Below, piece after piece: positions 3,153 to 54,714 of a stretch of 54,714 bases of DNA. The DNA lies in NCBI GenBank assembly GCA_027492975.1, contig JAPUDS010000022.1, positions 1 to 54,714 of the forward strand. Direction: 5' to 3'. The notes under the pieces are model-generated. The model was not told the origin of the DNA. It searched no databases and saw only the letters and a program-made list of their open reading frames with translations. Position 1 is the stretch's first letter. Each line of letters opens with the position of its first letter. The stretch comes from Candidatus Saccharimonadota bacterium. GTDB lineage: Bacteria; Patescibacteriota; Saccharimonadia; Saccharimonadales; Saccharimonadaceae. The position numbers and the translations under genes are program-made.

Positions 3153-3192
3153 GCCTGAAATCCCGAAACACTCCCCGCTCCCCGCATTCGCC
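3153..3192 (-). repeat. Copy B (inverted orientation) of the 40-nt intergenic repeat
   Basis: The reverse complement GGCGAATGCGGGGAGCGGGGAGTGTTTCGGGATTTCAGGC matches copies A and C with a few mismatches. With copy C it forms an inverted pair separated by about 45 nt. Confidence 0.75.
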
Positions 3193-3237: not shown

Positions 3238-3279
3238 GCGAAAAATGCGGAGTCGGGGGAGGTTTTCGGGATTTCAGGT
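3238..3279 (+). repeat. Copy C of the 40-nt intergenic repeat
   Basis: GCGAAAAATGCGGAGTCGGGGGAGGTTTTCGGGATTTCAGGT. It ends 17 nt before the -35 at 3297. Confidence 0.8.
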
Positions 3280-4464: not shown

Positions 4465-5973
4465 TTGGCAATGGCGGAGGTACTCTTGCTGACACTGGCC
4501 TCAACCTACCGTTCTTTATTGCTCTTGCCCTCGGTCTCCTCGCTCTCGGTTTCTTGGTCTCTCTTCCTCTCTCATCGCACTCACAAACTCTCCTTCCAGC
4601 ACCCTACCCCCCAAAGCTCTTCACACTCTTCACACTCTCCTCACTCTCCTCACTCTCCTCACTCTGCTTACTCTACCTTCAAACACTCCATCCTGAACAA
4701 CTTCAAAAACCTCACCGTCTTCACTCTCCTCACGCTTAGCATTACCTCACTCGCTTTCTCTCTTCCCACTGTCTCCGCCGCTCCAACTCTCACCCTAGCT
4801 ACTAACCAACAAACCCTCAACCTTACTATCCCAAAAGGCGGAGGAACTGCAACCACCACCACAACCATAACAACTAGCACACTGAATGACACTGGCTATA
4901 TACTTACTGCTGCACTTGAAGCAGCAGAGCCTGGGATAGGGATAGAGCTAAAAGGTGGCAACATCACTACCAACACTCCACTCACAGCAGCAACCAGTGA
5001 GACACCACTCACTCTTGCAACAACGACTGAAGCGAACTCCTCAGACCCAGAATCTTCAAGCGCTACCGATACTACCACCGTAGATCTTACCTTCACAGTA
5101 GACTCCACTGTCACCGAAGGCACGAAACAACTCAAGCTTATATACAAAGCCGTAGACAACGAACCAGCCACCAACACTGAACCAGTAGCTCCTACTACCA
5201 TGCAAACCATGACCAAAGACTACTGCACTAACCACATGACCATCTATGACGGCACTAACCCGAGCGCCATCCTCACCCTCCAAGATAACCGCGGTGCTAC
5301 TCCAGCCGACTACCGGACGTATGAGGTCGCCAAACTTGCTGACAATAACTGTTGGATGCTTGAGAACTTGAAGTTAGGTTCGACAACTGGGACACTAACT
5401 CTAACGTCGGCCGACACCGACATTGCTAGCGACTTCGTACTACCACAAGTTGTCACGACGGGTACTCCGAGTTATGACGATCCTGGTGTGTATGGTCCAG
5501 TACCGGGTGATACTGGCTCGGGCGCTACTAACTATGGGTATCTGTATAACTGGCCAGCAGCTACAGCGGGGGAGTCGCGTACTAGCATGCCGGCAGGGAG
5601 TGGCGATGCACCGTACTCTATATGTGCAGCGGGGTGGAAGTTGCCGACAGGTGATGTCTGGGGTGAATTTGCCGAGCTTGATATGGCTTTCGGAGGAACG
5701 GGTAGTTATGCAAGCTTTGGTCCTTCTCTCAACAGCTGGCGATACAACGGTCCATTTAAAGGACAATTGGCTGGTAGATGGGACAATGGTTTCTGGGCCT
5801 ATGGTTCGTTCGGTCAAGGTAGATGGTGGTCCGGGTCGGTGAGTTCAAGTACTGGCTATGCCCTCGGTGTAAGAGTTCCTAATAGTAGCAGTGGCGATCT
5901 CTTCCCTGGCGACGGCGAAGCTCTTCGTACTTATGGGTTTAGCCTTCGTTGTATACTTCCAACGGTTCTTTAA
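4465..5973 (+). CDS. Secreted Thr-rich protein with a C-terminal Fibrobacter succinogenes major paralogous (FISUMP, TIGR02145-like) domain. The start is uncertain.
   Basis: Internal signal-peptide-like FKNLTVFTLLTLSITSLAFSLPTVSA|AP. Thr/Ser-rich linker. FISUMP-like motifs CWMLENLKLG, YGYLYNW, CAAGWKLPTGDVW and GFSLRCI. An overlapping ORF at 4425-4739 in another frame holds the only good RBS-ATG. Confidence 0.7.
   Translation: MAMAEVLLLTLASTYRSLLLLPSVSSLSVSWSLFLSHRTHKLSFQHPTPQSSSHSSHSPHSPHSPHSAYSTFKHSILNNFKNLTVFTLLTLSITSLAFSLPTVSAAPTLTLATNQQTLNLTIPKGGGTATTTTTITTSTLNDTGYILTAALEAAEPGIGIELKGGNITTNTPLTAATSETPLTLATTTEANSSDPESSSATDTTTVDLTFTVDSTVTEGTKQLKLIYKAVDNEPATNTEPVAPTTMQTMTKDYCTNHMTIYDGTNPSAILTLQDNRGATPADYRTYEVAKLADNNCWMLENLKLGSTTGTLTLTSADTDIASDFVLPQVVTTGTPSYDDPGVYGPVPGDTGSGATNYGYLYNWPAATAGESRTSMPAGSGDAPYSICAAGWKLPTGDVWGEFAELDMAFGGTGSYASFGPSLNSWRYNGPFKGQLAGRWDNGFWAYGSFGQGRWWSGSVSSSTGYALGVRVPNSSSGDLFPGDGEALRTYGFSLRCILPTVL
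4617..4679 (+). repeat. Tandem 9-bp repeat, 7 units (CTCTTCACA x2, CTCTCCTCA x3, CTCTGCTTA, CTCTACCTT)
   Basis: Read directly. It encodes (SSH)(SSH)(SPH)3 in one frame and (LFT)2(LSS)3 in the overlapping frame. Confidence 0.85.
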
Positions 5974-7176
5974 GCTAAGAACTACTTTAGTGAGAACAAC
6001 GAGCTCGCGACCGGTCACCTGGTCGTCGCGGCGGTAGATGAGGTCGCCTGGAGCGGTGTCGAAGCTGACGCGCTGGAAGCCGAGGCGCTCGAGTTCGCCA
6101 AGGACAGGGAGGTGGTGGAGTGTATCGTTGACAAACCAAGCCGGCATGGCTATACAAAGGCGAGCGTCTTTTGGCAGCTGAGAAGCAATATTTTTAAGAA
6201 AACCGCGCATGACAGTGTTGCAGCTATGGATGATGGACTGGAGTTTTTCAGCAGTCGGTTGCTGGCCGCCGAGGGGCTGGCCGAGGTAGGCTTCGGTGGC
6301 TATAGAGAAGGATGAAGGATGAAGGATGAAGGATGAAGAATCCCAGGTACGAGAAGTTGCGTCGGCAGCCTCCAGTTTGATTCTTCCTTCTACCTTCATC
6401 TTTCTCTCTTCTGAAAGCCAACGTAAGTTGGCTGCAGTATAGTCAACCATCTTCTGACTAATATCGCTGCCGTAAACGTCGTAGCCCATGAGTAATGCTT
6501 CCTGAAGGATGACGCCCGTCCCGCAGAAGGGGTCGAGAATTGCTGTTTCTTCCGATCTTCCGATCTCGCCCACAGCGAGATTGACGATGATCTGTGCCAG
6601 CTTCGGCGGCAGCATACCGACGAAGGCATCACGCTTTGGGCGCTCGCGGTCGCGGATGCGGTAGGTGTTGATGTTTTGGACGCTCGTGACGCGGCCGATG
6701 AGGGTTTGGTCGCCGTCGCGGATGAGTACGAACTCTAGTCCAAGGGTGCTAGCTAGCGAGTTATGGAACGTTTGGGCGCTCGAGAGAGCAGGCGTCTCGT
6801 TTGGCACAACTCGAACTGACCGGCCGGATGAGCGGATGATTTTTTTGAGTCGCAGTGCCTCGCCGCCGAGTTCGTAGGGCGATATATCAAAACCGTAGAC
6901 GCTGAGACCAAGTTTTATTTTGCCATCTGCGGGAAGTATTTTCAGGAGGTCGGGGAGTGTGGAGGCGATTTTTTTAAATACGGTTTTGCGCGAAATATCC
7001 GGGAGCGACACCAGAAGCTCGGCTGCTTTGACGCTGCCGCCGAGCCGCGAGAAGTCAACCTCGGCGTCGACAAGCGCGCAAGTTTCGCCGACCGGACGAA
7101 CATGCTCGCTACCATATAACGACTCAAGCTCGGCAAGTCCGAGTTCGGGTTGGCGGCCTAAAACGCAAATAGTCAT
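5845..7176 (-). CDS. Class I SAM-dependent (RNA) methyltransferase, Trm11/UPF0020-like
   Basis: SAM motif I ILDPFCGTGVILQEA, then YGSDIS. The ATG at 7176 (MTICVLGRQPELGLAELE) is preferred over the upstream extension. The 3' end overlaps the convergent FISUMP gene by 129 nt. Confidence 0.6.
   Translation of the reverse strand: MTICVLGRQPELGLAELESLYGSEHVRPVGETCALVDAEVDFSRLGGSVKAAELLVSLPDISRKTVFKKIASTLPDLLKILPADGKIKLGLSVYGFDISPYELGGEALRLKKIIRSSGRSVRVVPNETPALSSAQTFHNSLASTLGLEFVLIRDGDQTLIGRVTSVQNINTYRIRDRERPKRDAFVGMLPPKLAQIIVNLAVGEIGRSEETAILDPFCGTGVILQEALLMGYDVYGSDISQKMVDYTAANLRWLSEERKMKVEGRIKLEAADATSRTWDSSSFILHPSSFSIATEAYLGQPLGGQQPTAEKLQSIIHSCNTVMRGFLKNIASQLPKDARLCIAMPAWFVNDTLHHLPVLGELERLGFQRVSFDTAPGDLIYRRDDQVTGRELVVLTKVVLSLKNRWKYTTKAKPISTKSFAVAREEIATATIRNSYTEGIAST
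6307..6341. repeat. Tandem heptanucleotide repeat GAAGGAT, 4 perfect units plus 1 degenerate, inside the methyltransferase CDS
   Basis: Units start at 6307, 6314, 6321, 6328 and 6335 (GAAGAAT). Confidence 0.9.
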
Positions 7177-7213
7177 GTTTGTATTATACCTGTACGGAGC
7201 TATACTGGATAGC

Positions 7214-8254
7214 ATGATAAAACGCCTGTCTGTAAAGCAGTGGCTAAATATCGTCACGCTCGTGCTTGTGGCGCTCGTCGTTTTTTTTGCGCGGCACGAC
7301 TTGGTCAGGGCGTGGGAGCTGTTATGGCAGGTGAATCTCTGGGTATTTCTGCTCGTTATCCCGCTACAGTTTGTAAGTTACTTTGCAAGCGGGGCGACGA
7401 TCTTTTCGTATCTGAAAATGCGTGGCGACCTCAAGGGTTTGCCACCGCTTGAGCAGCCGAAAATGGCGCTTGAGCTAAATTTCGTGAACCACATATTCCC
7501 GACAGCCGGGGTTTCCGGTGCTTCATATATGACCTACCGGCTAGGGAAACTTGGGGTGAACCACGGTCGGGCGACGCTCGCGCAGTTTGTACGTTTGAGC
7601 GCGACATTTGTGTCGTTCGCGGCACTGATGATCATCGCGGTGCTCTGGGTGACTGTTGATGGTGAGCTGACGCGGTTTACGATACTTGTTGCAAGTAGTT
7701 TGCTGACGATAATTCTAGGAGCGATAATAGCGACTATCTTTTTGCTCGGTAGTCAGAAGCGACTTGCTAAGTTTGAAGCGTTACTTGATGATGTGCTGAA
7801 CAAACGAGTTGCAAAGTGGTTTGGCCGAGGAAAGCCGTTTGTGCAGCGCGAAAAGTTACATGATTTTCTAGCTGACTTGCATGACGACTACGTGACATTG
7901 AGAGCTGATCCGCGTTGTCTCGTCGGGCCTTTTTGGTGGGGCGTGCTGTTCAATGTTGCTGAGGTGCTGATGTATTTTGTGGCGTTTTGGTCGCTTGGTT
8001 CGTTTGTCAACCCAGCATCGATACTTATCGCTATCGGTCTCGCCGGACTTGTCGGGACATTTCTCGTGACGCCGGGCGGTGCTGGCGGGTTTGAAGCTGC
8101 CATGATACTTTTCTTAACTTCTGCGGGCGTACCGCCATCTATCTCTGTCGCTGGTGTTCTGTTGACCCGTTCAGTACTGCTGCTTATCACGATCCTCTCC
8201 GGCTACGTGTTTTATAATGCGGCGATGAAGAAATATGGAAAACCTAGTCGTTAG
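7214..8254 (+). CDS. Polytopic membrane protein, flippase-like / lysylphosphatidylglycerol-synthase TM-region family (UPF0104-like)
   Basis: About 8 hydrophobic helices, an N-terminus WLNIVTLVLVALVVFFA, and a GG-rich helix TPGGAGGFEAAM typical of this family. The start was chosen at the ATG at 7214. Confidence 0.5.
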   Translation: MIKRLSVKQWLNIVTLVLVALVVFFARHDLVRAWELLWQVNLWVFLLVIPLQFVSYFASGATIFSYLKMRGDLKGLPPLEQPKMALELNFVNHIFPTAGVSGASYMTYRLGKLGVNHGRATLAQFVRLSATFVSFAALMIIAVLWVTVDGELTRFTILVASSLLTIILGAIIATIFLLGSQKRLAKFEALLDDVLNKRVAKWFGRGKPFVQREKLHDFLADLHDDYVTLRADPRCLVGPFWWGVLFNVAEVLMYFVAFWSLGSFVNPASILIAIGLAGLVGTFLVTPGGAGGFEAAMILFLTSAGVPPSISVAGVLLTRSVLLLITILSGYVFYNAAMKKYGKPSR

Positions 8255-10019: not shown

Positions 10020-10670
10020 ATGAATAAACATAACCGAGAAACTGGGTCAGTCAACCCCTTGCTTATCGCAAGTATTTTACTTGGACTGGTCGCGGCAGGG
10101 TTTGCCGGGGCGTTTTTCTGGGCCTATGGCAACTACATTGACCAGCGCGATAACACAACAGAGAAGATAGATGTTGCGGTGACGGAGGCGAAAAAAGCCC
10201 AAAGTGTCGAAGACGAAAAAACGTACCTCGAGAAGGCTAAGCAGCCGTATAGCCAGCTGGTGAGTCCGGATGATCTAGGGCGCGTGACCATAAGCTACCC
10301 AAAAACATGGAGCGTCTATGTTGCAAAGTCCAGTTCGACCGACTACGAAGCGTACCTGAACCCGGTTGCTGTTCCGGCTATTTCGTCAACACAGCCATTT
10401 GGCGCGCGTATGGTGATAACGGGCAATAGTTATGACTCTGTCGTCAACAACTACTCTTCGCTCGTGAAAAAAGGTGACCTGAAATCATCGCCAGTAACAG
10501 TCAATAATTTTAACGGTATCCGACTTGATGGCAAGTTTAGTGCAACACGTTCCGGATCGGTGGTGATTTTTAAAGTTCGGGACAAAACCTTGACGCTTGC
10601 AACGGATATCGATTCGTTGAAAGGCGATTTTAACGACGTTATCGTGAATTCGCTGAACTTCAATCCGTAA
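10020..10670 (+). CDS. Hypothetical membrane-anchored extracytoplasmic protein
   Basis: N-terminal TM (LLIASILLGLVAAGFAGAFFWAY) followed by a soluble beta-rich-looking domain. No motif recognised. Confidence 0.5.
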   Translation: MNKHNRETGSVNPLLIASILLGLVAAGFAGAFFWAYGNYIDQRDNTTEKIDVAVTEAKKAQSVEDEKTYLEKAKQPYSQLVSPDDLGRVTISYPKTWSVYVAKSSSTDYEAYLNPVAVPAISSTQPFGARMVITGNSYDSVVNNYSSLVKKGDLKSSPVTVNNFNGIRLDGKFSATRSGSVVIFKVRDKTLTLATDIDSLKGDFNDVIVNSLNFNP

Positions 10671-10673
10671 TAG

Positions 10674-10696
10674 GAGAGTGTTTTCGAGATTCAGGC
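10674..10696 (+). repeat. Partial copy D of the 40-nt intergenic repeat (3' half)
   Basis: GAGAGTGTTTTCGAGATTCAGGC, starting 4 nt after the stop codon at 10668-10670 and 42 nt upstream of a TATACT box (10738-10743). Confidence 0.6.
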
Positions 10697-14193: not shown

Positions 14194-16260
14194 ATGGAAA
14201 CATCCGGGACATCCGAACAGCACAGAGGCGAATTTGGCAAATACAAGGACCTTTCAGGCGAGCAGCTGCTAGGAGAATTGTTAGAAGACCAAAACGGAAA
14301 TACACAGCTGCAGCAACTTATCGTCGAATACGGTATGGAAAGCCTGAAAATCAATCCTTCAAGAGAACGACTCTCGGAACTTGCGGGTAGGATGGATGGG
14401 ATAGCTGAAAATCTAAAAAACGTACCTTCGCCCGAAAATACCATAGCTCCCGATGACGCTGTAGCTGCTATCGACCGATACAACGCCGCCGCGGTTGCTC
14501 ATGGCGAACAAGCGCCAGTGCTCGCTGAGTACGCTACCGCTGTTGATGATATATATAGCCGGCGTGCGGCTGGACGAACCGAACCACCGAAGGGACCAGC
14601 GCCTCCAGCGCCATCGGGAGGGGAAGGTGGTTCAGGCGGTCGGCTACATCTTACACCGGAGGCCGCAAAGCTCGAAGAATCGCTAGATGCGTGGTCAAGT
14701 GAAGCGCGTAGAAAAGCTCAGGCGAGAAGAAATCGTCACGCCCAGGCCGATGCTCAAAAGACAGGACGCGATGGGACGGTTGGTGTGGAAGGGACGAGTA
14801 CCGCAGACCCGCCTGTTGTCGAGGGCGGAGAAGGTGGCTCGTCGGCGGAGTCGGATCTCGCTACGGCTATTCGGGAAGAAAAGGAAGCTACCGCTCGGGT
14901 TGATGCAGCAGAAAAAGGTTCTGAAGAATTTATAAATGCGCTGCAAGAACAGATCGAGGCCCAGCGATGGGTTCAGGAGCTGCTGGATCGACAGGGCGGC
15001 GAACCGGGGCCGGATGAAACCGAACTCAAGCCTGAACCTGAACCCGAACCCGAACCCGAGTCGACACCTCCAGGGTCCTCTGATCTTTCTGGTGACAATA
15101 GTCAAGAATCACCCGACGAAGCGCTACATGCTCACTATCAGGAGTCGCAAAACCAAACAAACGAGGCGCTTCGCGCGCTTGCGGACGCAGAGGAGCTGCA
15201 TGGTGCGGATTCTCAGGAAGTTAGAGATGCGCGAGATGCACTTGCCGCAGCGCAAGCGCAGGAAAATGAGGCGTACGATGCATGGCGACCAGGTGCGTCC
15301 AGGACCGAATCTGGTCCAACACCTGAACCTGAGCCAGAACCTGAACCTGAACCCGGCCCTGAACCTGGCTCCGAATCAGAGCCGGCACCTAGTCCTGAGC
15401 CTGAGCCTGAGCCAACGCCAGAACCAGAACCAACATTTGAGCCGCCAGTAACGTCTGAACCTACGCCAGGCTCCGAACTTCCCAGTGCTCCGCCGAACAC
15501 TACAGAGACCATATCCGGTGCGGATGAAGCCTATGACACACTCCCCGAAGGTATAGGTGGCTCCGTAGAATCTTTGGGTGGAGCTTCACCAGAGTCGGCC
15601 CCGACGTCCGAAGAGGGGTCGATGACCGCTGACGAAGCATTTGACTCGCTTCCGGAAGGAATTAACCAACCTGTAAGCGAAGCGCCTGGTCCGGTCGAGT
15701 CTGAACCAACGCCAGAACCAGGATCTAGTTCAGAACTAGTACCAGAACCAAGCCCCGAGCCAACACCGGAACCTACCCCGGGCCGCATTGCAGAGGACGA
15801 TATTCGTGCGCGCGAGGAAGCTGAGCTTGAACGTCGTCGTAGCGGAGAGTCGTCAGGAGTAGCTACCGGGACACCGGAACGGCCAGAGACACCCAAGCTT
15901 GAGACAGAGCCTACCCCTAGTCGCCCGGCGGAGGATGGTATTCGTGAACTGATGGATGAAAATAAGATAAATCTTGCAGCGGCTGAAGAAGAGTTACAGC
16001 TTGCCGAGCGTTCTCGAAACATGATCACTGAACGTGTGGCCGCATGGCGTCAGGTGATCGAGAGCGCGCCCCGTCGCGGTCAGTTTGCATCTGTAGAAAG
16101 CCAACAAGCCGGACAGGGTATGCTGGAACTCCTTGAGCAGCAGGAAAAGGACGCGCAGCAGCGGTACGACAAAGCAGTAGAGCTCCGAGAGCGGATCTTG
16201 ACGGGTCAGCGTGAGCTGCAGGAACTTCTCGACCGACAACGACAAAACGTCTCCGAATAA
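14194..16260 (+). CDS. Large hyper-acidic, Pro/Glu-repeat (PEPEPE) low-complexity protein with coiled-coil ends
   Basis: 688-aa ORF with runs PEPEPEPEPES and PEPEPEPEPEPGPEPGSESEPAPSPEPEPEPTPEPEP. ELLDRQ is repeated near the middle and at the C-terminus. No signal peptide. Confidence 0.65.
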   Translation: METSGTSEQHRGEFGKYKDLSGEQLLGELLEDQNGNTQLQQLIVEYGMESLKINPSRERLSELAGRMDGIAENLKNVPSPENTIAPDDAVAAIDRYNAAAVAHGEQAPVLAEYATAVDDIYSRRAAGRTEPPKGPAPPAPSGGEGGSGGRLHLTPEAAKLEESLDAWSSEARRKAQARRNRHAQADAQKTGRDGTVGVEGTSTADPPVVEGGEGGSSAESDLATAIREEKEATARVDAAEKGSEEFINALQEQIEAQRWVQELLDRQGGEPGPDETELKPEPEPEPEPESTPPGSSDLSGDNSQESPDEALHAHYQESQNQTNEALRALADAEELHGADSQEVRDARDALAAAQAQENEAYDAWRPGASRTESGPTPEPEPEPEPEPGPEPGSESEPAPSPEPEPEPTPEPEPTFEPPVTSEPTPGSELPSAPPNTTETISGADEAYDTLPEGIGGSVESLGGASPESAPTSEEGSMTADEAFDSLPEGINQPVSEAPGPVESEPTPEPGSSSELVPEPSPEPTPEPTPGRIAEDDIRAREEAELERRRSGESSGVATGTPERPETPKLETEPTPSRPAEDGIRELMDENKINLAAAEEELQLAERSRNMITERVAAWRQVIESAPRRGQFASVESQQAGQGMLELLEQQEKDAQQRYDKAVELRERILTGQRELQELLDRQRQNVSE

Positions 16261-27897: not shown

Positions 27898-28719
27898 ATG
27901 AGTATTACAAAAGCGGTTATCATGGTTGCGGGGTACGGGACGCGGCGCCTGCCGGTCACAAAGACGATAGAAAAGTGCATGCTGCCGTTTGGCAACCGTC
28001 CGGTGGTTGACTACACTGTTCAGGACTGTATAGCGGCAGGTATCACGGATATATATTTTGTCGTGAGCGAACAAAGCACGCAGATTCGCGACTACTACCG
28101 AACAAATATCGATCTCAAAGATTACCTCATGCGCAACGGCAAAGACAACCTCCTGCCGCTCATCGCCCCGCCTGACGTCAAGTTTCACTATGTCACGCAG
28201 CCGAACTACGGCAACCGCGGCACCGCTGACGCTGTCGGACGTGTTGCGCCGATGATCCCGGAAGGCGAGTCGATCGTCGTGCTTGGCGGCGACGACTGTG
28301 TTTATAGCGAAACCGGTTCCGAGATAGCGCGGCTTATCGAGGCGGCGAGCCAGGGCGGCTCAGCTATGATGGGCATCCGCGTCGAACGCGAAAAACTGCC
28401 GTCGTACGGTGTTATCGAAGCTGACGAGGCGGGTCATTTTGTCAGTATCCATGAAAAACCGTCGGCCGAAGAAGCTCCGAGCGACATGATCAATATCAGT
28501 AAGTACGTGTTTGACTACAAACTTTTGAAACTCACCGAAGCCTATCTCGAAACGACCATCACCTCTGGTGAATACCTGATCACCGAGCCGATAAATCACT
28601 ATGTATCGGCTGGCGGAGCCATGAAGGTTGTTCCCGCAGAGGGCGAATACTTAGACAGCGGCACACTCGAAAACTGGGTTCATGCCAATAACTGGCTGTT
28701 CGAGCGCATGCAAGGGTAG
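27898..28719 (+). CDS. galU: Sugar-1-phosphate nucleotidyltransferase, UTP--glucose-1-phosphate uridylyltransferase-like
   Basis: KAVIMVAGYGTRRLPVTK..EK.MLP and GTADAV, LGGDD. Confidence 0.72.
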   Translation: MSITKAVIMVAGYGTRRLPVTKTIEKCMLPFGNRPVVDYTVQDCIAAGITDIYFVVSEQSTQIRDYYRTNIDLKDYLMRNGKDNLLPLIAPPDVKFHYVTQPNYGNRGTADAVGRVAPMIPEGESIVVLGGDDCVYSETGSEIARLIEAASQGGSAMMGIRVEREKLPSYGVIEADEAGHFVSIHEKPSAEEAPSDMINISKYVFDYKLLKLTEAYLETTITSGEYLITEPINHYVSAGGAMKVVPAEGEYLDSGTLENWVHANNWLFERMQG

Positions 28720-28721
28720 GG

Positions 28722-28872
28722 AAGGCTTTCTCCTCTTGACACCCTCTCCGGGGGGGGGGTACCATAAAAGTAACAATAAGCACTAGTACAATCACCTTGC
28801 TTATCGGTATGAGACACATTACTTTTCATAAGGAGGAACCAACAATACCATGACAAGACTACCCACCCCAGG
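28722..28872 (+). repeat. Copy 1 of a duplicated promoter-leader-start cassette. Bases 28760-28872 are identical to 54383-54495.
   Basis: Direct comparison of both stretches. The 113 nt after the G tract are identical, the upstream 40 nt are near-identical, and the coding sequences diverge after codon 8. Confidence 0.9.
28736..28765 (+). promoter_or_regulatory. Putative promoter TTGACA-18 nt-TACCAT whose spacer contains a G10 homopolymer (28750-28759)
   Basis: TTGACA at 28736-28741, spacer CCCTCTCC+G10, TACCAT at 28760-28765. An ~85-nt leader runs to AAGGAGGA and the ATG at 28850. Confidence 0.55.
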
Positions 28873-30188
28873 ACAAGACGCCGGTGCATGGGGCCAAATC
28901 CTCAACGACTATCTCTCAGCAGCTCATAAAGCAGATGGTACGCTAAAGGATAATGCTGTTACTGGTATTACTATTGCAAATGATTCTGTCACAGAAGCTA
29001 ATCTTGCACCGGAAGTAGTAGACAAACTAAACTCAGCTGGTGTTAGTTCTGTAGCTACACTAACAGGAGATATAACATCACCTGATCTTGTAGATGCACT
29101 AGAGACAGATCTCAGACTTCAGTATGCTCCGGTGGCTGGATCGAATTTGACGGCTAGTGGAGAGGACTCCTGGGCGGAGGGACGGGGGGCAACGGCGAGT
29201 GGGAATAATTCGCATGCGGAGGGGTTCCGGACAACCGCATCAACGACTGGTGCTCCTGGAGCACATGCGGAGGGGGCAAATACAGAGGCGACTTTCTATG
29301 CAGCACACGCTGAAGGTGATGGCACAAGAGCGACTCATGCTGGAGCGCATGCGGAAGGAATGACCACGACGGCATCTGCAGCAGGTTCTCATGCAGAAGG
29401 TAGTGGAACTGTGGCAAGTAGCCCCTCTGCTCATGCCGAGGGCAGCCATACGACTGCTAGTGGTACTAAATTCCCACGCAGAGGGTCAAGATACTGTGGC
29501 GAGTAGCAGCATTGCTCACGCGGAGGGCAACCATACGACTGCCAGTGGTGTAAATTCCCACGCAGAGGGTCAAGACACTACCGCCAGTGGAACCAGTTCG
29601 CACGCTGAAGGGTATGGGACGATCGCTAGTCAACCGAGTTCTCACGCAGAGGGTCAGCAAACTACTGCAAACGGACCTCTTTCACACGCCGAGGGTATGT
29701 CAACAACCGCCAGTGGAGCGGTTTCTCATGTCGAAGGCACTAGCGTAACTACCTTTCGTAGTAACGAGTCAGCTCGTGGTAGTGGTGGTTTTGTCCAACA
29801 CGCTTTCGTCCCTGCCAGCAACGGAGCCGCTCATCAAGCGGGTGTTACGTATGTCGCCGCCACCGGTGTTATCACTATCCCAATCCATGGAGGTATCACT
29901 AGTGGCAAGGTTACGGTACTAACCGAAGATGGTGCAATACGTTGGGATATAACCTTTTCGGCTAACAATAATGCCACTACCTATGCAACTAGAGCAACTG
30001 GAACAGTCAGTAGTATCGTAAGTGCGGGGACAAGCAGTCCAACACTCGGCACATCAAGTATCACTTGGACTGTATCTGGCAATACTACGGGGCAAGTCGT
30101 TATAACCCCAAACACCGCACCGCCAGCAATACGAGTATGGTGTGAACTGCTACAGCTTGGATCTCTCGCACAAACAAGACCAGCGTAA
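28850..30188 (+). pseudogene. Surface/fibre-like protein with a conserved N-terminal domain and about fourteen 14-residue SHAEGxxTxASGxx repeats (YadA-head / Hep_Hag-like beta-roll periodicity). The reading frame is interrupted by 1 extra nt at 29465-29468.
   Basis: ORF 28850-29506 and ORF 29391-30188 carry the same repeat in different frames. The total length is 1339 nt, or 3n+1. GGTACTAAATTCCCACGCAGAGGG aligns with the intact unit GGTGTAAATTCCCACGCAGAGGG, showing 1 extra base. Confidence 0.7.
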
Positions 30189-30386: not shown

Positions 30387-30415
30387 TTGACAATATATCA
30401 AGCTTATGCTAAGAT
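30387..30415 (+). promoter_or_regulatory. sigma70-type promoter TTGACA-17 nt-TAAGAT
   Basis: TTGACA at 30387-30392 and TAAGAT at 30410-30415. The ATG at 30422 lies about 7 nt downstream. Confidence 0.5.
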
Positions 30416-30421
30416 GGATAT

Positions 30422-30571
30422 ATGGTACACATCACAAAACCAACACAGCACTACAACATAACAGAGGTCAATGCACTAGTTCTCCAGGATCTTAAGTATT
30501 CGATGGTGATTATTTCACTGTTGATAAACCTGACAGTTTTCGTTACTTGGCTTGTTGTTGCAGTTGCATAG
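30422..30571 (+). CDS. Candidate leaderless small ORF (49 aa) with a C-terminal TM helix
   Basis: Manual translation: MVHITKPTQHYNITEVNALVLQDLKYSMVIISLLINLTVFVTWLVVAVA*. No RBS, but the ATG sits at the expected transcription start site of the promoter above. Confidence 0.3.
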   Translation: MVHITKPTQHYNITEVNALVLQDLKYSMVIISLLINLTVFVTWLVVAVA

Positions 30572-30670
30572 CTCAGAAATACATCATTTTTCGTCATGTG
30601 ACTCGGCAGGGGAGCTACCGCTGTTATGCGTGTAAGTTTTCCACAGTTTGTCGGTTGAAAATGGCAATAT

Positions 30671-30739
30671 GTGGGTATTTTCTTTGAAAAAACTATTGCA
30701 TGTGGGTAGCAGTGGGTAGTACACTACTTTCAGTGGCAC
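30671..30739 (+). promoter_or_regulatory. Helically phased GTGGGTA/GTGGCAC direct repeats: candidate MraZ operator
   Basis: GTGGGTA at 30671, 30702 and 30712, and GTGGCAC at 30733. The spacings are 31, 10 and 21 nt. The array lies about 100 nt upstream of mraZ. Confidence 0.45.
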
Positions 30740-54338: not shown

Positions 54339-54495
54339 GCTCTTGCTCTCTCCTCCCCTTGACACCCCCTCCGGGGGGGGGGTACCATAAAAGTAACAAT
54401 AAGCACTAGTACAATCACCTTGCTTATCGGTATGAGACACATTACTTTTCATAAGGAGGAACCAACAATACCATGACAAGACTACCCACCCCAGG
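54339..54495 (+). repeat. Copy 2 of the promoter-leader-start cassette
   Basis: Bases 54383-54495 are identical to 28760-28872. The upstream part is near-identical and includes TTGACA and G10. Confidence 0.9.
54359..54388 (+). promoter_or_regulatory. Second copy of the TTGACA-18 nt-TACCAT promoter with a G10 tract (54373-54382) in the spacer
   Basis: TTGACA at 54359-54364, spacer CCCCCTCC+G10, TACCAT at 54383-54388. Confidence 0.55.
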
Positions 54496-54714
54496 CTCTG
54501 ATGCCGGTGCATGGGGTCAAATCCTCAACGACTATCTCTCAACTACCCATAAACAAGACGGTACTCTCAAAGACAATGTCGTCGGTAGTGCTCAACTCCA
54601 AGACAACGCTATAACAACTACTCAACTAGCAGATGATACCGTCACAGAGTCTAACTTAGCTCCTGAAGTAGTAGATAAACTAAACACTCCTCCCTCCTGG
54701 ACAGACCTTACCGA
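54473..54714 (+). CDS. 5' part (runs off the window) of a paralog of the 28850 surface-protein gene
   Basis: MTRLPTPGSDAGAWGQILNDYLSTTHKQDGTLKDN...LAPEVVDKLN compares with MTRLPTPGQDAGAWGQILNDYLSAAHKADGTLKDN...LAPEVVDKLN in the 28850 gene. Open to the window end. Confidence 0.75.
   Translation, partial: MTRLPTPGSDAGAWGQILNDYLSTTHKQDGTLKDNVVGSAQLQDNAITTTQLADDTVTESNLAPEVVDKLNTPPSWTDLT

Follow-up and report, generated by a model that had tools for sequence, protein, structure and literature searches.

A G10 tract in the promoter spacer of two Saccharibacteria fibre genes as a candidate slipped-strand expression switch

The fibre genes A and B and their promoters

The window, that is, the whole stretch of 54,714 nt that was analysed, is an ordinary Saccharibacteria chromosome segment. 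It encodes an NTP-transferase whose relatives were found in Saccharibacteria MAGs only, with no more than 75% protein identity among the GTDB species genomes, and genes for a GH1 glycosidase, CofD, mraZ, mraW, a PBP, topoisomerase I, DprA and pth lie nearby; neither tRNA genes nor Rfam matches were detected in the window. Two paralogous genes encoding repeat-rich fibre proteins, designated A and B, are each preceded by a promoter-like sequence with a run of ten guanines (G10) in its spacer:

28736..28741, plus strand: -35 hexamer TTGACA of locus A (direct reading and consensus scan)
28742..28759, plus strand: spacer of locus A, 18 nt, consisting of CCCTCTCC (28742-28749) and G10 (28750-28759)
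28760..28765, plus strand: -10-like hexamer TACCAT of locus A (4/6 matches, without a TG extension)
28766..28849, plus strand: predicted 5' leader of locus A, with a putative start site at about 28772 and AGGAGG at 28831-28836
28850..30188, plus strand: fibre gene A, comprising ORFs 28850-29506 and 29391-30188, split by a +1 frameshift
54359..54388, plus strand: promoter of locus B, TTGACA, then CCCCCTCC and G10 (54373-54382), then TACCAT; spacer of 18 nt
54389..54472, plus strand: 5' leader of locus B, 100% identical to the leader of locus A
54473..54714, plus strand: fibre gene B, a paralogue running off the contig end, about 80% identical to gene A past codon 8

The ATG start codons of genes A and B are located at 28850 and 54473, respectively. 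The first-pass annotation had described, at 28736-28765, TTGACA and TACCAT separated by 18 nt of which the last ten are G, and had spoken of two such loci; direct reading confirmed the former, and the second, near-identical copy is that at 54359-54388. In a consensus scan locus A was the sole sigma-70-like site within 28300-29300, with 10 of 12 matches and a spacer of 18 nt; its -10 box, TACCAT, is weak and lacks TG. Judged by the consensus and by a comparison of four promoters, G10 is placed between the -35 and -10 boxes at both loci. A sigma-70-type promoter at the fibre genes is, on these sequence grounds, very probably real.

It is highly improbable that the tract is not a promoter feature at all, but part of an RNA hairpin, terminator or leader element transcribed from upstream, or an artefact of assembly or sequencing. 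Pairing of CCCUCUCC with the G10 after it is conceivable; however, no terminator-like site was found, the tract is not followed by a U-run, the homology between the paralogues begins about at the -35 box, and the leader of locus A gave no Rfam match, either at the gathering score or at E <= 1, while its fold did not surpass that of shuffled controls (z = -0.33). No intrinsic terminator of the upstream gene was found at either locus. As for an artefact, those of the poly-G type do occur on two-colour sequencers, but such an origin is unlikely here since the tract lies within the contig between conserved flanks and was seen again in an independent assembly (L094, described below).

In the predicted product of gene A, an N-terminal domain of about 100 residues is followed by some 18 copies of a 14-residue unit (SHAEGxxTTASGxx) and by a beta-rich C-terminal domain that is conserved. 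Its frameshift is due to one extra base at AAA 29468-29470: the gene reads ACT AAA TTC CCA, whereas ACT AAT TCC CAC (T N S H) would be expected from its own repeat unit and from intact homologues. Each of the two halves is collinear with P0001, P0002 and P0008, homologues that are intact and differ mainly in repeat number. Gene A could be a pseudogene, or the extra base could be an assembly error or a polymorphism; being frameshifted, the gene may thus leave the promoter of locus A at the head of a pseudogene. A second frameshifted member of the family is found in L004 (GCA_029975385.1), where a fibre homologue is split at about 905-915 by A6 in place of the A5 of L002. A pilin-like (N_methyl) gene adjoins the fibre homologues in L003 and L004.

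The repeats of gene A match the BpaC head in PDB (E = 7.5e-12). The Pfam domain YadA_head scored 21.7 bits in gene A, under the 25-bit cut-off, and 62.7 bits, over the cut-off, in the homologue from L104. The N-terminus of gene B gave weak matches to PHROG tail fibres, and relatives with the same repeats bear the tail-fibre C-terminal domains Peptidase_S74 and Peptidase_G2. No YadA anchor domain was found in the Pfam scans of gene A, L104, P0001 and P0008, the N-terminus of gene A (MTRLPTPGQDAG) contains neither a hydrophobic segment nor a signal peptide, and no coiled-coil stalk was called in the fibre proteins. The AlphaFold model of P0008, with a mean pLDDT of 44.7, was too poor for a fold search. 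A trimeric autotransporter adhesin was rejected, as both the C-terminal YadA anchor beta-barrel and the N-terminal signal peptide are absent. The fibre proteins share with the YadA/BpaC adhesins of that type the 14-residue head-type repeats, but differ from them in the lack of a signal peptide, a stalk call and an anchor, and in an N-terminus that resembles phage tail fibres. The sequence therefore supports a fibre protein with YadA-head-like repeats, and that part of the earlier description as an adhesin/fibre repeat protein stands; the adhesin part does not follow from a protein with a tail-fibre-like N-terminus and neither signal peptide nor anchor. For the latter reason surface exposure is only assumed, and the protein may or may not act as a surface adhesin.

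The region downstream of gene A contains further features. Within 30387-30571, a hydrophobic ORF of 49 aa (30422-30571) is preceded by a canonical promoter, TTGACA-17-TAAGAT with TG; this ORF is conserved upstream of mraZ, with 58 aa in L103 and 49 aa in L109, and is followed in the window at 30660-30735 by GTGGGTA repeats typical of MraZ boxes. Elsewhere in the window a 30-nt element, AATGCGGAGTCGGGGGAGGTTTTCGAGATT, occurs in direct copies at 75-104, 3244-3273 and 10662-10691 and in an inverted copy at 3154-3188; two of its copies lie about 16-24 nt upstream of strong promoters with 17-nt spacers at 120 and 3297. In-frame repeats are present at 4624-4674, where the 9-nt unit CACTCTCCT is repeated 5.7 times (SHSPHS...) close to the N-terminus of a Fib_succ_major-like protein of 502 aa, and at 15015-15443, where Pro/Glu-rich (PEPE-type) repeats are part of a 688-aa protein. 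A perfect GAAGGAT repeat of 4.6 units at 6307-6338 is located inside a minus-strand ORF (7257..5845, 470 aa) encoding a UPF0020, N6_N4 methyltransferase-like protein. As its unit of 7 nt is not a multiple of 3, one unit gained or lost would shift the frame, and from its sequence this repeat is a possible second repeat of the contingency type.

Rarity of the tract and conservation of the promoter

Loci A and B are identical over 127 nt (28746-28872 and 54369-54495), from the spacer through the leader and the first eight codons, while past codon 8 their identity falls to 79.5%. The homology sets in about at the -35 box, a few bases upstream of TTGACA, and the one mismatch (T/C) lies in the non-G part of the spacer. 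The two copies are 25.6 kb apart. Such a sharp step in identity would result from gene conversion or from a constant expression cassette ahead of diverging genes; the promoter, leader and first eight codons probably form a constant cassette common to the paralogues and homogenised by gene conversion. The G10 of A and the G10 of B, belonging to one converted cassette, are therefore not independent, and the three G10 tracts known (A, B and that of L094) amount effectively to two independent observations.

Runs of this length are exceptional in the lineage. In the 54.7-kb window G10 at locus A and G10 at locus B are the only G/C runs of at least 7 nt, and both pass the length of about 8 or more G/C at which a mononucleotide tract is considered hypermutable. 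The run-length spectrum established for 716 kb of DNA from 96 Saccharibacteria loci comprised 2393 G/C runs of 4 nt, 251 of 5, 32 of 6, 3 of 7, none of 8, one of 9 and one of 10. The counts thus drop about 10-fold per extra base and end at 7, save for one G9 and one G10; the lone G10 in this set belongs to the orthologue of the fibre-gene promoter in L094. Extrapolation from the spectrum gives about 0.0003 expected G10 runs per 55 kb, against two seen, in the same promoter position. Chance as the origin of the G10 pair can be excluded.

The G9, the sole other G/C run of at least 8 nt in the 716 kb, is located at 5066-5074 of L086, a distant Saccharibacteria MAG (WRLL01000013.1), in codons 27-30 of a gene for a 496-aa acidic protein. 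This gene lies directly downstream of the NTP-transferase gene, which is the syntenic site of gene A, and its G9 is, by its position in the coding sequence, a candidate translational on/off tract. Among phage contigs, L106 (8815-8848, G14, spacer of 22 nt) and L108 (3831-3859, G9, spacer of 17 nt), which are 88% identical, contain TTGACA-GAATACCC-Gn-TACCAT; a Cys-rich ORF of 58 aa and a tape-measure-like gene lie downstream. The tract-length polymorphism of this look-alike is real; as the search pattern forced its architecture, it is no evidence on the fibre locus.

The spacing between promoter boxes was surveyed in about 770 kb (the window and the Saccharibacteria loci) by pairing each TTGACA without mismatch with -10 boxes that agree with TATAAT in at least 5 of 6 positions. 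The distribution peaks at 17 nt, with 18 of the 29 pairs, and none of the 29 has 18 nt; this sharp peak indicates that the lineage uses canonical promoters. With -10 boxes of at least 4/6 matches, the window alone holds seven promoters with 17 nt and two with 18 nt, the latter being the G10 promoters alone. The earlier statement that the loss of one G would give the optimal 17 nt agrees with this survey: these genomes prefer 17 nt, which a G9 would provide. The G10-containing spacers of A, B and L094, of 18, 18 and 19 nt, are all near this optimum.

An exact look-up of the NTP-transferase of the window returned no record, the nearest having 91% protein identity, and hence the collection is without strain-level relatives. 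The closest relatives were reached via NTP-transferase homologues about 90% identical at the protein level. The promoters compared are the following:

Window A: TTGACA-CCCTCTCC-G10-TACCAT, spacer of 18 nt
Window B: TTGACA-CCCCCTCC-G10-TACCAT, spacer of 18 nt
L094 (flanking NTP-transferase gene with 79% nucleotide identity to the window): TTGACA-TCTCCTCCA-G10-TACCAT, spacer of 19 nt
L104 (flank with 78% nucleotide identity to the window and 92% to L094): TTGACT-TCTCCCCAAAGGGGAGGG-TACTAT, spacer of 18 nt
L113: TTGACG-N17-TATACG, spacer of 17 nt, no repeat

TTGAC is invariant in A, B, L094 and L104, and the -10 box is TACCAT in L094 and TACTAT in L104. In the latter two the core promoter is 79-84% identical to that of the window and the remaining leader 49-54%; for L094 the figures are 81-84% and about 54%, respectively. 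The retention of the hexamers while the leader drifts supports a real promoter. In L094 the non-G part of the spacer is N9 and G10 occupies the same position as in the window; the promoter is followed by an ATG (MTRLPTPGS), and the contig stops 30 nt into the gene. With G10 and a 19-nt spacer in L094, the tract length is not visibly tuned to a constant spacing. In L104 the G-rich stretch is interrupted (AAGGGGAGGG, 18-nt spacer) and heads a 410-residue fibre homologue; compared with L094, one nucleotide has been gained or lost in this stretch and there are three G/A substitutions. The L104 spacer contains the dyad CTCCCC-AAA-GGGGAG. L113 encodes P0008, a homologue with a compact repeat region. 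The homologous fibre genes of L104 and L113 are thus driven without a homopolymer, and those with 58-67% identity (L002-L013) have ordinary upstream regions.

Comparing tract lengths across related loci had been suggested in the first-pass annotation as a check on the switch that it proposed. In the consensus assemblies no variation in the length of the tract was seen, the tract being G10 in A, B and L094, interrupted in L104, and replaced by a spacer without a repeat in L113; the sole difference in length is the 1-nt indel that separates L094 from L104.

The fibre gene itself is not a constant inhabitant of this site. The gene and its promoter were absent from all 80 GTDB NTP-transferase loci, and the gene is absent at the site in L103, L095-L102 and L109-L112, in which the NTP-transferase gene is directly followed by a small ORF and mraZ; the NTP-transferase of L095-L102 and L109-L112 is 80% identical. 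Its absence from several relatives indicates that the fibre gene is a variably present island between the NTP-transferase gene and mraZ. L104 carries the fibre gene together with a Fic-domain gene, both of which are missing from several relatives. Some contigs stop at or near these genes: the window includes no more than the first 240 nt of gene B, and L105 finishes with the stop codon of the gene upstream. The pattern TTGACACC-N8-28-TACCATAAAAGTAAC had no match in the GTDB species genomes and a single unrelated chance match (L001) in the JGI metagenomes; among viral contigs the leader motif had no match.

Operator, unselected run or slipped-strand switch

Three explanations of the tract as part of the promoter can be weighed against these data. 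The first is a static operator, in which the C-rich and then G-rich spacer would be a dyad site for a regulator, e.g., a MerR-like activator of promoters with over-long spacers, and G10 a degenerate palindrome of fixed length. The clean inverted repeat in the L104 spacer would suit such a site, as would the fact that four promoters are all pyrimidine-rich and then G-rich, with spacers longer than 17 nt, and that three tracts are exactly G10. On the other hand, C8/G10 makes a poor, off-centre palindrome, the spacer DNA with G10 folds no better than shuffled sequence (z from +0.1 to +0.65), the L113 spacer is plain and 17 nt long, and no gene for a MerR-type or other HTH regulator adjoins either locus. 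Moreover, a run so far beyond the spectrum of the lineage would slip whatever binds to it. A fixed operator is accordingly improbable. A MerR-type promoter in particular was rejected: MerR spacers have 19-20 bp, as against 18, 18, 19 and 18 nt here, the dyad is clear in L104 only, and the neighbouring genes are those for NTP-transferase, mraZ/mraW, pth and ZIP.

According to the second explanation, which is unlikely, though less so than the operator, the promoter is real but the tract has no function: a G-rich spacer would have drifted to a pure run in a sub-lineage and been copied by gene conversion, and the run, even if it slips, would be tolerated noise or a step toward gene decay. The frameshift in gene A is in line with decay, the run is missing in the relatives L104 and L113, several relatives can dispense with the fibre gene at this site, and the observations of G10 come down to two independent ones. 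Yet the pure run persists in spite of only 79% identity of the flanks and about 54% of the leader, and without mismatch repair an unselected run should shrink or be interrupted, as happened in L104; long G/C runs are otherwise purged from these genomes. The occurrence of a pure G10 in two lineages so far apart in their flanks, in genomes otherwise purging such runs, argues for its maintenance by selection and not by accident.

The third explanation, a slipped-strand "volume control" of the fibre gene family similar to those of porA and vlp, is in our opinion the best reading of the sequence, with a probability of about one in two. Replication slippage (slipped-strand mispairing) would add or remove guanines and in this way change the distance between the -35 and -10 boxes. 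G9 would give 17 nt, the optimum of the lineage, and the strongest promoter; G10, with 18 nt, would give an intermediate level; and G11 or longer, with at least 19 nt, a weak promoter or one that is off. Cells of a population would then differ in the amount of each fibre, the paralogues switching independently, and the cassette would remain constant across the paralogues while the repeat and C-terminal parts diverge. Frequent slippage is expected because Saccharibacteria are reported to be without MutS and MutL, neither of which was found in them (PMC8406219); in Neisseria the loss of mutS raises the switching of mononucleotide tracts up to about 1000-fold (PMC3639595). The G10 tract is quite probably unstable in vivo; whether its promoter serves as an adaptive switch is an evenly balanced matter. 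Promoter conservation, the retained G10, the reported absence of MutS and MutL, and the porA precedent together make slipped-strand change among 17, 18 and 19 nt the most likely mechanism; where transcription starts, that the tract slips in vivo, how this would affect expression and a part of the fibres in attachment are inferred. The phase-variation switch proposed in the first-pass annotation thus gained from the anatomy, rarity and conservation of the tract and from the preferred spacing, and lost from the failure to find length variation and from the relatives without the tract.

The closest parallel is the poly-G/poly-C promoter tract of Neisseria meningitidis porA (and likewise opc), in which a homopolymer of about 9-11 G lies between the sigma-70 boxes of a surface-protein gene and one-base changes grade expression (PMC3639595). 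With the porA poly-G between -35 and -10, expression is highest at 11G, 2.2-fold lower at 10G and 13-fold lower at 9G (PMC3639595). The Saccharibacteria tract differs in that it occupies the -10-proximal part of its 18-nt spacer and belongs to a phylum reported to be without mismatch repair; its product is a fibre with YadA-head-like repeats instead of a porin, and two paralogues share the cassette. In Haemophilus influenzae, according to van Ham et al. 1993 as cited in PMC5084427, a change in the number of TA repeats at hifA/hifB alters the -35/-10 spacing and hence fimbrial expression; the promoter there is divergent, serves both genes and has a repeat unit of two nucleotides, whereas the fibre-gene promoter is unidirectional and its repeat is a mononucleotide run.

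With regard to the organisation of the family, the vlp genes of Mycoplasma hyorhinis, reported by Yogev et al. 1991 and Citti and Wise 1995, offer a further likeness. Each copy of this family reportedly has a poly-A run in its promoter spacer, and the family is said to combine a highly conserved promoter and 5' end with divergent, repetitive distal coding regions in a host with a reduced genome. The fibre genes resemble this reported arrangement in being paralogues whose promoters and 5' ends are conserved, whose spacers contain a homopolymer and whose bodies are repetitive and divergent. They differ from it in having poly-G and not poly-A, in the lack of a lipoprotein signal peptide, and in that the two copies in the window are 25.6 kb apart and do not form a clustered array.

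Implications for episymbiotic Saccharibacteria

Phase variation driven by simple sequence repeats did not turn up for Saccharibacteria or CPR in the literature search, in agreement with the earlier remark that no description of the mechanism in such genomes was known; the nearest case is a Gracilibacterium gene with a hypervariable 9-mer repeat (PMC6851277). The slipped-strand switch of the fibre genes would add a member to an established class of switches and may be the first such candidate in CPR bacteria. If no variation exists, the locus is only a slightly unusual promoter.

A wider reading is offered tentatively, being less probable than the promoter switch as such: the fibre family may be a multi-locus contingency system, with a selected G10 and a cassette homogenised by gene conversion, producing fibres stochastically for host attachment or choice, or for phage exposure. 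If true, it would be the first simple-sequence-repeat phase variation in CPR bacteria, and the G9 of L086 and the 7-nt methyltransferase repeat of the window would be further members of the repertoire. This contingency reading sets such a system in the tiny genomes of Saccharibacteria, with few regulators and no MutS or MutL. A fibre promoter switch, if true, would also explain the breaks in MAG assemblies at these genes.

In a cultivated Saccharibacterium, Tn-seq revealed that several adhesins are needed for epibiotic growth, and nanoluciferase and GFP reporters already work in Saccharibacteria (PMC10633639). A heritable stochastic fibre switch, if true, would mean bet-hedging on host range and on immune or phage exposure in cells poor in both regulators and repair.
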